A stretch of DNA of 64,000 nt from Dictyostelium discoideum. Lineage: Eukaryota. Every line of letters starts with the position of its first letter. Positions within the stretch are counted from its first letter, which is position 1. Below, piece by piece: positions 2,531 to 53,983 of this stretch. A program made the position numbers and the translations under genes. The stretch lies in contig CM000152.2 in NCBI GenBank assembly GCA_000004695.1, forward strand, positions 5,728,001 to 5,792,000, read 5' to 3'. The notes under the pieces are model-generated. The model worked only from the letters and a program-made list of their open reading frames with translations, searched no databases and was not told the DNA's origin.

Positions 2531-5223
2531 GTAATAATAATACAAATATAAATATAAATACAAATAATAATAATGATAGTAATAATAATAATTGTATTAA
2601 TAATGATTTAAAAAATAATAATAATAATAGTAATAATAATGTAAATAATAATAATAATAATATTAATGATAGTAATAATAATAATAATAGTAATAATAAT
2701 AATATTAATAATAATATTAATAATAATATTAATAATAATAATAATATTAAAAAGAAAAAAAAGAAAAATGAATTTACAGTTTATTTTTCAGTAATTGATA
2801 GTGGTTCAGGTATTGATCCTTATAGTACAAATTTATTATTTCAACCATTTTCATTATCAAGTTATAATGTAAATTCAACCAATACAGATGGTGAATTTGG
2901 TTTAGGTTTAGCAATTTGTAAACAATTATCAAATTTAATGAACGGTGAAATTAAATATGAAACAGAAATGGAGAAGGGATCAGTTTTCGAGTTACAAGTT
3001 CCAATGAAATGTGATAGTATTAGCTCAATTACTTCCTCGATGAATAGTACTACTAATACCACCAATCATTATCCAAGAATTATGAATAATCAAAGTTCAA
3101 AGTTTTTTGCAAACTCTAAATGGGGCGAAGGCTTAAAGATATTGGTTATTGATGATAATCCAAACATTGGAAAAGTGATAGCAATGCATTTGGAACCATT
3201 TGGATTTAAAGTTTTCCAAAGAACCACCTTTCAATCGGCTATTTATTTCTTTAATGAACGTAATGGTGATTTCAATCTAATTCTTTTGGACCCATTGATT
3301 CCTTCATTGGTAATCGATGAGATTAAACAAATGAAACAAGATTCTTCCAATATCATAAAGAATCCACCTTTGGTAATAATGTGTACCGCTAAACTTAGAA
3401 AATCTTTAAATGTTGATAATGTTCATTACCTCTATAAACCAATTAAAAGAGAACAATTAACTGTACTCTCTCAATTATTACCAAATACTTCAACAATTAA
3501 TCCAATTTATTCAAATCAAAATTTAAATAATAGTGGTAGTAGTAATGGTGGTGGTGGTGGTGGTGGTGGTGGTGGTGGTGGTGGTGGTGGTGGTGGCAGT
3601 GGTAGTAGCAATATTGATTTCAATAAAACTAAACTTGGTGGTTCTAATATTTCAACTGGTATTGGTAATAGTGGTTTAATTAATAGTAATAATATTCCAA
3701 CTCCAGTTAATACACCTTCAAATATTATTCCAAATTTACTTTCTTGTCAATCATTATTAACAAGTTTAAATAATGCAAATATTCCTCAATTAACAAATGA
3801 TATTGGTATAACAAATAATAATATTAATAATAATAGTTTAATGTTTACAACACCAAATTCAACACTTAGTAATAATGGTATTACAGGTTTAGATAATAAT
3901 AGTAATAATGATACTGGTAGTATTGATAATAATAGTAATATTAGTACAAATATTGATAATAATAATGATTATTTTATTAGAAATAATGGTATTCCTCCTC
4001 AAAATGATATGAATACTTATAATAATTATGTTTTAAATCATCAACAAGGTGTTCTACCAAAATCATTATCAGTACCATCCACTCCATTATCATATAATAT
4101 GTTACCAACAAATCTAAACATTAATGCAAAGAGATCTTCATTACAACCATTAAATGAAAATTCAGTTTTACCAACAAATTTAACACCTCCAATTTTATCT
4201 GCTTCACCTCAATCTTTACTTCCAATGGGTAATGATATTAATTCAATATTACCAAATACCCAACAATCACAAATAGATTTACAATCACAAATCGAATTAC
4301 AACCACTTTTACAATCAACTATAATTAGAAATGATCGTGGTGGTGATATTTTACCTGATTCAACTTTAGAAGGTCAAATAACAAATTTAAGTGGTAATAA
4401 TTCAACCATATCAATAAATCCACCATTACCAGAAACTAATAACAACACAACAACAACGACAACAACAACACAACCAAAGAAATCACCGATATTAACATCT
4501 TCAAATGGTAGTGATAAGAGTGAAGGTTCGACTGGTAGTAATAGATCAAAATCTAGAATTTCCTTTTTAAATTCAAGTAATAGTGGTTTATTAAAAAATA
4601 ATCTTGGTGAAGATATTTATTGTAAAGGTGATCAATCTGAAGGTATTCCAATACCAAAATCTGAAAGAACTTCTGATTCTTCATCTTCATCTTCTTCCTC
4701 TGATTCACATGGCCAAGATGATCATTCATATAGATTGGAAGATTTTTCAATTTCTTCACCATCTTCTCAATCACCATTACTAGATTTAAGTGGTACAAGT
4801 GGTACAAGTGGTACTACAAATCTTGCAAATAGTGGTATTAATAGTGGTAGTGGTAGTGGTGGTGGTGATATTATTAATCAAAATCAATTAATAACATCAA
4901 ATCAATTATTTCAACAACAACTACAACAGCAACAACAACCACAACAACAACAACCACCAGGAACTCCAACAATTTCACCATCATCATCATTCCCATTATT
5001 ACCAATACCAAGAGATATCATTAATAGCAGTGGTGCAAGTAGTGGTATTAAAGTTAAATCGTCAACTTCAATACCAGATTATGTACAAGTTTCACCAAGA
5101 AGATTTAGTGGTAGTAGTACAGGAAGTGGTAGTAGTGTTGCATCACCTCAATTACTTTCAACTTCAAATCAATTAAATAATAATATTAATAATCTTAACC
5201 TTAATAGTAATAATAATAACAAC

Positions 5224-5255
<32 letters not shown>

Positions 5256-5682
5256 AAATAATGATAATAATAATAATAATGATAATAATTATAATGTTAA
5301 TATTTTATTAGTTGAAGATAATTTAGTAAATGCAAAGATTGCAATGACAGTATTAAGAAAACATAATTTTAGAGTTGAACTTTCAAAGAATGGTCAACTT
5401 GCGATGGAAAGAATTAAACAAAGTCACTCATCATTCGATTTGATTTTAATGGATATTCATATGCCTGTAATGGATGGTATCACTTGTTCAAAGTTAACAC
5501 GTAAATTTGAAACTGAACATGGTCTTAAACATTTACCAATTATCGCTCTCACTGCTGATGCAACCACTGGTCATAAAAATCTTTGTCTTGAAGCTGGTTG
5601 TAATGAATTTATGTCAAAACCTTTAGATTATGCTTTATTAATTAGTTTATTAAAGAAATTAGTTTTTAATAAAGATCAATAA
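92..5682 (+). CDS. hybrid histidine kinase-like protein, 2 exons (92..478, 553..5682), about 1838 aa
   Basis: ORFs 92..520 and 619..5682 join through a GTAAGT(479)...AG(552) intron, phase 0. N-terminal hydrophobic segments. ATPase N/G-box region (LVGDSQKIKQILLKLITNSIKAT ... FSVIDSGSGIDP ... GLGLAICKQL). First receiver degenerate (LVIDDNPNIGK...LILLDPLIP); C-terminal receiver canonical (LLVEDNLVNAKI...LILMDIHMPVMDG...ALTAD). Long N-, H- and G-tracts. Confidence 0.85.
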
Positions 5683-12729: not shown

Positions 12730-13355
12730 TTTATATTTAAATATTATGTGTGTAAAATTATTATTATTAAATGAAAAAAAAAAAAAAAAAAATTAAAAAT
12801 TAAAAAAAAAAAAAAAATGTGATGATCACAAAAAATTTAATTTAATGTAAAAAAAATTGAAAAAAAAAAAAATTAAAAAAAAAATAAAAAAAAATAAAAA
12901 ATAAAAAATTAAAAAAAAAATAAAAAATAAATTTAATTTAAAAGAGTGAAGTTGCAAATTTTTTATTTTAATAATTTTTTTATTTGTTAATTTTATGATT
13001 GAAATAATAAACAAAATCTGAAATTTTTTATTTTTTTTTTTTTTTTTTATATTATATTTTCTTATTCTTTTTTTTTTTTTTTCTTTTTTTATTTTTTTTT
13101 AATAATGAATTTAATTATATTATTGAATAAATAATTGAATTGACACTTTAAAATTTAGAATATGATTTAAAAAAAAAAAAAAAAATATTTTGGACAAAAC
13201 ATTAATTATTTAAAGATATTTTTTTTTGTTTTTTTTTATTTTATTTTATTTTATTTTTTTTTTATTTTTTTGAAAATTTTTAGATTTTTTTGTTTTTTTT
13301 TATAATTTTTTTTTTTTTTTTTTTTTTTTTTTCATTCACTATCATTTATATCAAA

Positions 13356-14554
13356 ATGTCAATAAGTATAAAAGATAAGAAAGAAGAATTGCTCTGTAGA
13401 TTAACAGATTTTACTAAATTAAAAGGGTGAGGATGTAAAGTACCACAAGCAGAGTTGCTCTCTCTACTTGATGGTATAGGTGAAGGTATTGGTTATGATT
13501 GTAGTATTTCACAAACAAAATTCCCTGATATTGTTATGATTCAAACAACAGATGTAAGTTTAAAATTATTTAAAAATAAAAATAAATTAATAAAATTATA
13601 TATATATATATACTAATATATATATATATATTCTTTATAATTTTTTTAAAAAAAAAGTTCTTTTTCCCGTTAGTTGATGATCCATATTTCCAAGGTAAAA
13701 TTGCATGTGCCAATGTTTTATCAGATCTTTATTCATTTGGTATTGAAGATTGTGATAATATGTTAATGTTATTAGCATGTTCAACTGATATGACAGCAGA
13801 ACAAAGACAATGGTCATCGAAATTGATGATACAAGGATTCAATGATCAGGCAATTTGCGCAGGTAGTAAAGTTAGTGGTGGTCAAACCGTAAAGAATCCA
13901 TGGCCGATAGTTGGTGGTGTTGCAACTTCCATTTTAAAGACCAACGAATTTATAAAGCCAGTGAATGCTGTCCCCGGTGACGTATTAGTATTAACCAAGC
14001 CTCTAGGCACACAAGTTTGTGTAAACTTTCATCAATGGTTATCTAAACCAGAACGTTGGGAAAAGATCAACACAATTACAAATGCAGAAGAATGTGAACA
14101 AGTATTCAACTATGCAACACTGTCAATGGCAAGATTGAATAGGGTAGGCGCAAGACTAATGAAAAAGTATAATGCTCATGCCGCCACCGATGTCACTGGT
14201 TTCGGTATATTGGGTCATTCAACTAATTTGGCTCAAAATCAACTCTTACCAATTCGTTTTGAAATTCATACATTACCAATCATTAAACATATGAAAAAGT
14301 TGGAAGATCATTTAAATCATCCATTCAAATTATTAAAAGGTACTTCAGCTGAAACTTCTGGTGGTTTATTAATTTCAATGTCTCGCGAAAATGCTGAAGC
14401 TTTTTGTAAAGAAATCTATGAAATTGAAAAACAACCAGCTTGGATCATTGGTGATGTAATCGATCAATCCTCAAATTATGATAGATCTAAAAATACTTCA
14501 ATCATTTTAGAAAATCCAAAAATTATTGAAGTTGAACCAAATACAAATTTTTGA
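13356..14554 (+). CDS. selD: selenophosphate synthetase (selenide, water dikinase) with in-frame UGA selenocysteine codon at 13428..13430, 2 exons (13356..13553, 13658..14554)
   Basis: Exon 1 MSISIKDKKEELLCRLTDFTKLKG-U-GCKVPQAELLSLLDG matches human SEPHS2 (FTRLKGUGCKVPQ). GTAAGT donor at 13554; acceptor AG 13656-13657, then FFFPLVDDPYFQGKIACANVLSDLY..., continuing into ORF 13760..14554. Confidence 0.85.
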
Positions 14555-15011
14555 TTTAAACAAAAGTTTGTAACATTTTGACAATTACCAAAAAAAAAAT
14601 AAAAATTAATATTTAATTTTTATTTTTATCATTCAACAATTATCAACAACAACAGTCATAAAAAAAAAAAAAAAAAAAAAAAGAAACACCTCCTTCACTA
14701 TCAACTTTATACATTTAGATAAATTTATTTTTATTATTTGAAGAGCAATCAAATATTAAAAAAATTATTAAAAAAAGAAAATTTATCAAACAAAAATAAT
14801 AATAATAATAATAATTTTTAATAACAAATATTGTAATGATTTGAAATTGATAAATCCATATTATTGGACTTAATTTCATTGAAAAAAAAAAGATATAATA
14901 ATTATAGAAATAAATAAAATCTATATATTATTTTTTTAATATTTATTATTAAAAACAAATTTAAACTTTATTTTATTATTATTTCTTTTTTTTTTTTTTT
15001 TTTTTTTTTTT

Positions 15012-16627
15012 TTATTTTCTTGATTCAAGTAATACTTTAAATTTATTTGGTTTTAAAGTTAAACCAAATTCTTCATAATCAGAAACTGGTGTACCAATAT
15101 TTTTTAAATTAAAATTTAATAAAATATTTGAAAATGATAAATATTGTTCATCACCTGCTAATTGTAAACCAACACATTTTCTATCACCAACACCAAATGG
15201 CATGTATGCATCATTATTTTTATTTAAAAATCTTGATGGATCGAATTGTGAAGGATTTTCAAAGTATTTTTCATTGAATCCTAAACCTCTATAATTAACA
15301 AGAATTTGTGAATCTTTTGGAATGAAATACTTACCATTACCAATTACGATATCATTTGATGAACGATGTGGTAATCCAAATGGTCCAACTGGATTTAAAC
15401 GTAATATCTCTTTAATAATTGCATTTAAATATGGTGTTTTTGGACGATCTGATAATAATACTCTATCTCTATCGCCTACAGCATCTTTAATTTCATTATA
15501 AGCTTTTAATTGAATTTCTGGATGTTCTTGCATTCTTAATACAAACCAAATTATACTTGCTGCTGTTGTATCCTAAATAAAAATTATAAAAAAATAATTA
15601 AAATTTGAAAGTTTAAAGAAAAATTAAAAAAAAAATAAATTATCATGATGTACAAACATTTCCAGCTAAAAACATATCAAGTGAAGTTTGTAAAATTGTT
15701 GGAATTAAATTTTTATCATTTGAAAATTCATTAATTAATAAATCCATTAAATCACGTGGATTATCATGATCAATTGTATTTATATGTTCTAAATATCTTT
15801 TATAAATGAATTTTTTAACTGTTGAAAATGGTCCATTAAATTGTTTATCTGAGAATTTTAACCATTGATAATAGAATGGTTGAGCGATTGATATAAAGTC
15901 ACCTAATTTACCAGACCCTAATGATTTGAAAATTTGGTCCATTGGTTGAACCAATTCTGCTATCTTGCCTTTGGTAATATCCTCATCATATGAAATATCC
16001 TCATTAAAAATATATTTAAACATTATTGATAATGTAAAACGTTGTGCATATAAATGAATTTCAAATGGGTTACCAGTGACTTGATACTGTTTCATTGATT
16101 TAATTAATTCATAAACTTGGCTATCCAACATATCATAAATCTTTTTAATTGATGTTCTTTTCATTGCATTTTGTACTAATTCTCTAGTTCTTTCCCAACG
16201 TTCATTTGATAATGATAAACCGTGATCACCACCAGCACCAAATTTAAATGTTGGTAATAATGGACGATATTTAAAATTTTCATGATTATCAACAAACATT
16301 TCCCTAATTAAAATTGGATCTGAAACTACAACTGTATAAACATCACCAAAATGTAATCTAAAAATTTCACCATAAACATTATGCATTTTTGTTAATGTAT
16401 AATGTGGTTCTTTTCCTAATTGATGTAAATTTCCAAGTAATGGAATTGGAAATGGTCCTGATAATTCATTTTTATGAATTTTCTTATATTTTTTAATCTA
16501 TTTTTTTTTTTTTTTTTTTTTTTAATTAGTATATTTTTTTTTTTTTAAAAAAAAATAAATGTAAAATACATACGCCGGAGCTAACAATACAAAATATAAA
16601 TAAATATAAAAATATATTAAATAACAT
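15012..16627 (-). CDS. cytochrome P450, 3 exons (16574..16627, 15658..16497, 15012..15572), about 484 aa
   Basis: N-terminal anchor [18 protein letters not shown], then [11 protein letters not shown]-helix FLAGN|DTTAAS, and heme loop [14 protein letters not shown]. Donors GTATGT(16573) and GTTTGT(15657); acceptors ATAG| and TTTAG|. Joins ORFs 15643..16386 and 15012..15533. Confidence 0.85.
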
Positions 16628-17444: not shown

Positions 17445-21854
<4,410 letters not shown>

Positions 21855-23385: not shown

Positions 23386-23467
23386 GACATCGTAGCGAAG
23401 TGGTCTAACGCGTTTGACTTGAAATCAAATCTCCTAGGAGGCGCAGGTTCGAACCCTGCCGATGTCG
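23386..23467 (+). tRNA. tRNA-Ser (anticodon UGA)
   Basis: 82 nt. Acceptor GACATCG/CGATGTC plus discriminator G; anticodon stem TTTGA/TCAAA with loop CUUGAAA; long variable arm CTCC-TA-GGAG; T-arm GCAGG-TTCGAAC-CCTGC. Confidence 0.85.
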
Positions 23468-35246: not shown

Positions 35247-35645
35247 ATGAATCAACAAATACAACAACAAAAACAACAACAACAAACCAATGATGAAGAT
35301 GATGACATATTATCAAATGTATTTTCAAATACATCATTTATAGTTGATCCGGATTCTAATTTTAAAAAAGAAGAAAATACAAGATTAAAACAATATAAAT
35401 CAATAAATTCAAATCAACATGAAAAGAGAATTCAATACTTTTTAGATAGACAAAAAGAAAAGAGAAGAAGCTTATTATCACATGTTAGACAATTAATTAC
35501 ATTACCAACAAATGATACTTCAATTGAAATTAATACAAATACTAATACTACTACTAATAGTAATAATAATATTAATAATAATGATGATGTTTCAATGAAT
35601 GAAGATGAAAATATTTATGATAATAGTAATAATAATAATAGTAAA

Positions 35646-35678
<33 letters not shown>

Positions 35679-36563
35679 GATAAATTTAAAGAAATTAATA
35701 AAAAAAAACAACAAAATAAATCAACTAAACAAGATTTATTATATTCAAATCATTTAATGTTAGCAGAGGGTATGGTACATATACCAATTACTTTAGAGAG
35801 AGAATGGTATTGTGTACCTGTACCACTTGGATATCGTTGTTTAGTAATCTCACAGAATGATTGGACAATAGTTAGATCAGCAGAGAATGGTCAAGTTTTA
35901 AAGAGATTTAAAAGTTTATTACCATTTGGTAGTGAAGAATCAAGAGAATCATGTCCACCCCAAAATCAGCATTGTATATTAGATTGCATATTTCAAGATA
36001 CTGAAAATACCTTTTACATTTTAGATATCCTATCTTGGAAAGGTTATATATTATATGATTGTGATACTGAATTTAGATTCTTTTGGAGGGATTCGAAATT
36101 ATTAGAATCAAAGTTACATCAAGGTCAACAAACAAAACAAAAAGAAAATCAAATAGAAAAAGAAAATGAAAATGAAAATCAAGAAGAAAAAGAGGTTACA
36201 TTTTTATCAATACCATATTTTAGTTCAAAGGTTGATTCATTAGAACAAATTAAATTTGACTATTTATTAAAAAGAAATAATGCCAACACTGATAAACAAA
36301 TTTTACAATATAAAACCGAATTTTTATTATTTTATCATAAATCATCACATTACGAATTTGGTACAACTCCTTTATTTTGTTCTTTAGCTATTGAATATAT
36401 TGATACCGTTATTGAAGTTTTAAATTATAGAAATCAATATGGTACAGAGGAGGAGGAGCAAGAAGAAGAAGAACAAGAAGAAAAATATCAACAAGAAAAA
36501 GAACAGATTGAAAATAATTATAGTTTTAATAGTAGTGATAATGACTATGAAATGAATAAATAA
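35247..36563 (+). CDS. snurportin-1 homolog (m3G-cap import adaptor), single exon
   Basis: N-terminal IBB-like RLKQYKS...QKEKRR. Cap-binding core aligns with human SNUPN: NHLMLAEGM / NQLMLSEWL; WYCVPVPLGYRCLVIS; RFKSLLPFG; ILDCIF...FYILDILSWKG...YDCDTEFRFFW; LLFYHKSSHYEFGTTPL. Confidence 0.85.
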
Positions 36564-53549: not shown

Positions 53550-53579
53550 TGTGATACAGGTTTTAATGCACTAAAAATT

Positions 53580-53660
53580 CGACACCTGCAGGGTTCGAAC
53601 CTGCGCCTCCGAAGAGAACGCCTTAGCAGGGCGCCGCATTAACCACTTTGCTAAGGTGTC
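53580..53660 (-). tRNA. tRNA-Ser (anticodon GCU)
   Basis: Minus strand, 81 nt: GACACCT-TA-GCA-AAGTGGTTAA-TGC-G-GCGCC-CUGCUAA-GGCGT, long variable arm, T-arm GCAGG-TTCGAAC-CCTGC, AGGTGTC-G. Confidence 0.85.
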
Positions 53661-53983
53661 ATTGAAAACCAAATGGGTTATACACTTTGCTAAGGAGTTA
53701 TCGAAACAAAACAACAACAATCTCTTTTTTTGACTATCTCAAGGAGAAGCAAATAATAATTGCGTTATCCAATTCAAAAAAAAAAAATCTCTTTTTTTGA
53801 TTATTTCATTTTTCATATAAAAAGACTTAAAAAACAAATAAATAAATAAATAAACTATTTTAAAAAGCCATATTTTTACTTTATTGTAATTTATTATTTG
53901 TTTTGTTTTGAAAAAAGAAAAAGATAATCAAAAACAACAACAACAATCTCTTTTTTGATTGTTTCATTTTTCATATAAAAAGA

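Follow-up and report, generated by a model that had tools for sequence, protein, structure and literature searches.

The window analysed here, a stretch of 64,000 nt of Dictyostelium discoideum DNA that is strongly AT-rich (21.5% GC), contains between positions 13356 and 14554 a coding region with an in-frame TGA codon, and the question raised by this locus is whether that codon stops translation or specifies selenocysteine (Sec). The list of open reading frames showed at this locus 13760-14554 alone (264 aa), as the earlier note on this DNA had stated; that note had also claimed that a longer frame, opening at ATG 13356, belonged to a selenophosphate synthetase gene in which the TGA was a Sec codon. 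Elsewhere in the window, the ORF at 35247-36560 was identical to XP_640046.1, DDB_G0282431, of D. discoideum AX4. The evidence given below makes it almost certain that the locus is the selD/SPS2 gene of D. discoideum AX4, with UGA codon 25 encoding Sec and with a canonical type II SECIS in the 3′-UTR.

Gene model, protein family and the catalytic site

Translation from ATG 13356 gave MSISIKDKKEELLCRLTDFTKLKG, followed by TGA at 13428-13430 (plus strand) and then by GCKVPQAELL..., the TGA being codon 25 of selD/SPS2. Exon 1 (13356-13553, plus strand), delimited by translation, frame and conservation among dictyostelids, comprised 66 codons including the Sec codon. It was followed by a 104-nt intron of the form GTAAGT...AG (13554-13657, plus strand) and by exon 2 (13658-14554, plus strand), which contained 298 codons and the TGA stop at 14552-14554 and encoded the AIRS and AIRS_C domains found through Pfam, NCBIfam and PDB matches. 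Splicing restored the frame from exon 1 to exon 2 and gave exactly 364 codons plus the stop; the intron had a GC content of 5% versus 31-34% in the exons, and the join of ...QTTD to FFFPLVDDPY... was unbroken in the alignment with human SEPHS1. The upstream frame with its TGA, the GTAAGT intron and the 364-aa product claimed in the earlier note were thus borne out, every coordinate being right.

For the protein searches, Cys was put at residue 25. The whole protein scored 216.5 bits (cutoff 125) with the curated equivalog model TIGR00476 (selD), while two PRK models, one bacterial and one archaeal, stayed under their own cutoffs (223 versus 291 and 135 versus 299, respectively). Both Pfam domains, PF00586 (AIRS, 36.4 bits) and PF02769 (AIRS_C, 57.3 bits), were above gathering. 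Alignment of the 364-aa product, proposed earlier as a check of its SPS2/SelD identity, matched human SEPHS1 (3fd5/9hjt) with E=2.4e-107 over residues 14-361 and Leishmania major SelD (5l16) with E=8e-93, in agreement with that identity. The scores with TIGR00476 and SEPHS1 indicate that the selD frame is not a chance ORF.

In the N-terminal Gly-rich loop, LKG-[UGA]-GCKVPQ, the position of the catalytic Sec/Cys was followed by G-C-K, a feature of SelD membership. The column of the TGA was occupied by Thr29 in human SEPHS1 (LKGTGCKVPQ, 3fd5) and by Cys in Leishmania SelD (LKGCSCKLPQ, 5l16). Human SEPHS1 (SPS1), the solved paralogue, is a non-selenoprotein with Thr at this site; the dictyostelid protein shared high identity with it over the residues aligned but lacked a 17-residue insertion that SEPHS1 carries after the loop. 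The Cys-type SelD proteins of L. major (5l16) and Escherichia coli (3u0o) belong to the same family and have the catalytic residue in the same column, with Cys (TGY) where dictyostelids have UGA, and need no recoding signal because Cys is used. With eukaryotic SPS2 enzymes such as human SEPHS2, the product shared the AIRS/AIRS_C fold and the [LF]T.LKG-x-GCKVPQ loop, and the gene shared the UGA at x and the SECIS in the 3′-UTR. As judged from these alignments, the UGA occupies the Sec/Cys site in the N-terminal loop that defines SPS2-type enzymes. A full-length SPS homologue (P0029, ENA, 362 aa) had Trp at the Sec position (LKGWGCKVPQ); the codon may be a TGA translated with another code table rather than a genuine TGG.

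The orthologous loci of D. dimigraforme, D. purpureum, Heterostelium album, Acytostelium subglobosum and Cavenderia fasciculata were compared with the window, giving six species in all. TGA was present at the identical column in 6 of 6, in the context AAAGGGTGAGGNTG, with the peptide on either side kept in all 5 other dictyostelids and an ATG located 17-24 codons upstream of the TGA in every species. Over all pairs of the six species, pN/pS was 0.16 in the 17 codons before the TGA and 0.23 in the 41 codons after it, synonymous sites being near saturation (pS 0.5-0.7). These ratios indicate that the codons flanking the UGA are under purifying selection on both sides. A conserved TGA with constraint on both sides implies in turn that the ribosome must read through the UGA.

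Between D. discoideum and D. dimigraforme, pS was 0.62 in the 17 codons before the TGA (13377-13427 in the window versus nt 3022-3072 of the D. dimigraforme locus, L001) and just 0.11 in the 41 codons after it, a contrast with zero amino-acid change and drawn from a small sample.

The SECIS element and the 3′ end of the gene

A SECIS had been expected within a few hundred nt after 14554, and a type II element was found at 14828-14896 (plus strand) by a geometry scan, folds, covariation in RNAalifold and a leave-out covariance model. It lay 281 nt after the selD stop codon, on the same strand and ahead of the convergent P450 gene ending at 15012; in the spliced mRNA, the UGA precedes it by about 1300 nt. 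From its base upward, the element, all on the plus strand, was composed of a predicted helix I, paired in the fold between AUAUU and GAUAU (14828-14832/14892-14896); the UGUA (14832-14835); the AUGA (14836-14839) and the 3′ GA (14881-14882), both invariant in the six species; two U.U mismatches (14840/14880 and 14841/14879); helix II of 9 bp (14842-14850/14870-14878), the length expected being about 9-12 bp; the bulge UAAA (14851-14854) with an unpaired AAA (14852-14854); and an apical mini-stem, UCCA/UGGA, seen in the fold (14855-14858/14865-14868). The AAA sits 12 nt after the AUGA, the expected range being 10-13 nt. The AUGA/GA kink-turn quartet is present by sequence and position, and its non-Watson-Crick pairing is predicted. 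With AUGA, AAA and GA all in place, the earlier statement that the 3′-UTR lacked an obvious ATGA...AA...GA core was wrong, and its suggestion of a variant quartet found no support, the core being canonical AUGA/GA. The element had been missed because the search ended at 14800, and the core starts 36 nt beyond.

The geometry scan (NTGA, helix, GA) gave one good candidate per 3′-UTR in 6 of 6 species, located 219-389 nt past the stop, and the candidates in the six 3′-UTRs were of the form ATGA-hairpin-(T/C)GA. From the six-species alignment, RNAalifold recovered helix II and the mini-stem unaided, with 13 pairs of which 5 were compensatory (double-sided). Cells of the structure were paired in 92.3% of cases versus 26-56% in slid controls, and the covariation score was reached by 0 of 500 shuffles. 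Taken separately, the helix II consensus had 10 pairs, 5 double-sided changes and 93.3% of cells paired; the mini-stem, which marks type II versus type I, had 3 consensus pairs and was paired at 88.9% across species. An AA was observed in the apical bulge of 5 of the 6 species (UAAA, AUAA or CUAA). Helix I was present in 4 of 6 constrained folds, the flanking sequence being unalignable between species. The SECIS of C. fasciculata (L005, nt 5284-5329) had CAC in the apical bulge and no unpaired AA on the 5′ side; this CAC possibly represents a variant AAR motif.

The leave-out covariance model was built from the four distant species, with the window and its close relative excluded, and was applied, unfiltered, to both strands of the whole 64 kb. 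Its sole significant match in the 64-kb window was at 14828-14886 (plus strand; 47.5 bits, E=5.9e-6). The second-best match, at 17958-18016 (minus strand; 20.2 bits, E=0.28), was rejected as a SECIS, CAGGA replacing AAUGA.

The Infernal search suggested earlier thus succeeded with the lineage-specific model and failed with those of Rfam: cmscan with the Rfam 15 SECIS models gave zero SECIS matches at E≤10 in 13000-15400 or in the 121-nt slice 14800-14920, the returns being chance snoRNA/lncRNA matches with E of 6-10. We read this as limited model coverage of AU-rich protist SECIS, because every structural feature tested directly was present. The element shares with the metazoan-centred Rfam SECIS families the kink-turn AUGA/GA core, helix II, the AAR motif and the apical mini-stem, but differs from them in being very AU-rich (19% GC) and in having two U.U mismatches after the core. 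A strict SECIS scan disallowing two U.U mismatches after the core gave no candidate. In a single-sequence fold, the SECIS region was no stabler than shuffles (z=-0.31), as expected because the SECIS stem is short and AU-rich. Taken on sequence and predicted structure, the SECIS is real, unique in the window and of canonical type II.

Two overlapping AATAAA at 14909-14918 (plus strand), 27-31 nt after the SECIS, are weak candidate poly(A) signals in intergenic sequence of 12% GC and would mark the 3′ end of the selD mRNA. Another AATAAA (14598-14603) was located 44 nt after the stop, upstream of the SECIS. Polyadenylation directed by this hexamer would yield an mRNA without the SECIS; at 12% GC, the match may have arisen by chance. 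The neighbouring cytochrome P450 gene (15012-16386, minus strand) is convergent with selD, the two stop codons being 457 nt apart, and the SECIS falls within the intergenic region shared by the two genes. This arrangement is kept in D. dimigraforme (P450 gene at nt 5230-6855 of L001, minus strand).

RNA structures around the UGA

Hairpin B (13440-13477, plus strand), which begins 10 nt downstream of the UGA, was part of the MFE fold in 6 of 6 species and is proposed, with moderate confidence, as a candidate SRE. Across the six species, 85.7% of its cells were paired versus 42-55% in slid controls, and pair 30-57 appeared as AU, UA, CG and UG. Its z-scores versus synonymous resampling were -0.6 to -2.0, with a second structure (stem A, below) competing for the same bases. 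Stems "starting about 2-10 bp downstream of the TGA" have been described in all UGA-containing SPS genes (Mariotti 2015, PMC4561486), and in comparison with the SRE/HRE stem-loops of SPS genes (Howard 2005 as cited in PMC4561486; Mariotti 2015) the start of hairpin B is within this 2-10 nt range. Thus, by analogy, hairpin B is probably an SRE of the known kind that aids recoding. In the inner register of the hairpin, the D. discoideum group was unlike the other species.

Stem A, tentatively drawn from the RNAalifold consensus, would enclose the UGA by pairing 13423-13431 with 13458-13466 (13423-13466, plus strand). The GGG just 5′ of the UGA (13425-13427) was the sole GGG among 24-32 glycine codons in 6 of 6 species, and the CTC leucine codon at +10 (13458-13460) was invariant in the six species; in the AT-rich Dictyostelium species, CTC is an uncommon choice, used for 2-4 of about 35 Leu codons. 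GGG(-1) and CTC(+10) can pair inside stem A. Versus synonymous resampling, stem A was kept more than predicted (P = 0.015-0.094 per species). Its pairs were invariant, with no covariation, and the slid controls were high (60-81%), so that covariation is uninformative either way; with these properties, stem A is not claimed as an established structure. Synonymous conservation around the UGA was not significantly raised (identical-codon columns 3 of 13 versus 20 of 164, Fisher P=0.38), and folding the UGA region as a single sequence (z=-0.54) is uninformative in AU-rich RNA.

Stem A and hairpin B are mutually exclusive and could conceivably form a conformational switch balancing termination versus Sec insertion, a proposal that we consider unlikely. 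If it were true, SPS2, which provides the selenium needed for its own production, would be subject to an autoregulatory loop at the RNA level.

Alternative readings and relation to known selenoprotein genes

In the mechanism envisaged, SPS2 (selenide, water dikinase) makes the selenium donor for selenocysteine synthesis and is itself a selenoprotein, UGA codon 25 being decoded as Sec in the catalytic Gly-rich loop (LKG-U-GCK). Recoding would be directed by the SECIS at 14828-14896, which, by analogy with other eukaryotes, would bring SBP2, eEFSec and Sec-tRNA(Sec) to the ribosome, and the hairpin 3′ of the UGA would probably help as an SRE. Selenium incorporation at the UGA is taken from the literature, in which the 75Se band was matched by size, not by peptide sequence (PMC2375036).

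Other ways of accounting for the TGA are much less probable. Readthrough with a standard amino acid, SECIS-independent and aided by a stem-loop as in hymenopteran SPS1-UGA, would suit the conserved hairpin adjoining the UGA, and in other SPS genes SRE/HRE structures do promote readthrough that needs no SECIS (PMC4561486). However, plain readthrough would not need a SECIS, whereas a covariation-supported SECIS is kept in 6 of 6 species; moreover, the hymenopteran SPS1-UGA genes are without SECIS in hosts without selenoproteins, while D. discoideum has selenoproteins, tRNA-Sec and an SPS-sized 75Se band. Such readthrough is therefore judged very improbable. We give as little credence to splicing of the TGA segment out of the mRNA, which would join ...EELLC to EGIGYDC... 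and yield a 336-aa protein without Sec. The 28 codons lost (RLTDFTKLKG-U-GCKVPQAELLSLLDGIG) constitute the catalytic Gly-rich loop, can be aligned to human SEPHS1 and Leishmania SelD residue by residue, show purifying selection across the six species and are exon-like in GC content (31% versus 5% in the real intron). NCBI models do remove this segment in the D. discoideum, D. dimigraforme and D. citrinum assemblies, but from species to species the models get around the TGA by incompatible solutions, a pattern typical of gene callers that try to avoid a stop.

Termination at the UGA, leaving either a pseudogene or a protein that begins at a later ATG (for example 13760) and lacks its N-terminus, has next to no probability. 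Mechanical ORF calling yields 13760-14554 only, yet a product starting at 13760 would miss the catalytic loop together with the greater part of the AIRS N-domain, the TGA is invariant in 6 genomes and the SECIS is conserved. The codons upstream of the TGA are also conserved (pN/pS 0.16 with saturated synonymous divergence), and because these codons are constrained, termination at the UGA is excluded. Sequencing error, pseudogene status and downstream initiation all misfit the conserved TGA and the two-sided constraint. Reading the TGA as a selenocysteine codon, as the earlier note did, thus agrees with its presence in 6 genomes, the coding constraint on both sides, the covarying SECIS and the published selenoprotein (PMC2375036).

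Five selenoproteins, SPS2, SelK, Sep15, MSP and a deiodinase homologue, have been reported in D. discoideum (Lobanov 2007, Genome Biol 8:R198, PMC2375036), and the supplement of that study gives GenBank U68248.1 as the SPS sequence. The gene described here is of the same organism, family and Sec status as the SPS2/selD of Lobanov 2007, with no substantive difference, and is the same gene. According to that study, every Dictyostelium SECIS is of type II: a UGUA precedes the core, a U-U mismatch follows it directly, and an AAA is left unpaired (PMC2375036). All four features are present at 14828-14896. Of the Sec-decoding machinery that the earlier note had foreseen in this organism, tRNA-Sec is on record (Shrimali 2005, as cited in PMC2375036), and 75Se labelling of D. 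discoideum revealed a band matching SPS (PMC2375036). ARAGORN detected no tRNA-Sec in the 64-kb window; it reported two tRNA-Ser genes, at 23386-23467 (plus strand) and 53579-53661 (minus strand), with anticodons UGA and GCU, respectively. The SPS genes of D. purpureum and D. fasciculatum have been classified as the selenocysteine type (Mariotti 2015, PMC4561486), the D. fasciculatum gene being on the same contig as the C. fasciculata locus analysed here (L005).

Public selD models dodge the TGA inconsistently in D. dimigraforme, D. purpureum, H. album, A. subglobosum, C. fasciculata, D. citrinum, D. firmibasis and new D. discoideum assemblies (D. dimigraforme locus L001, nt 3001-4406; proteins P0001, P0002, P0004, P0005, P0022 and P0123-P0129). 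In some of them an invented intron removes the catalytic loop (residues 15-42); others use a downstream start, one is fused to unrelated upstream sequence, and most are named "hypothetical protein". Exact protein look-up returned no entry for the 264-aa ORF or for the full-length product, whether residue 25 was entered as X or as C; the protein collection searched apparently has TGA-avoiding selD models only. Since many recent annotations of dictyostelid genomes delete or truncate the catalytic loop to dodge the TGA, automated selD annotations are not to be trusted.

The selD/SPS2 finding is correct but already known, the protein having been listed among the selenoproteins by 2007 at the latest. 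It adds no new biology, and its value is practical: the case shows the correct recognition of a selenoprotein gene concealed by the ORF track, and, where the Rfam SECIS models miss the AU-rich dictyostelid SECIS, a small lineage-specific model of four sequences finds such elements cleanly.
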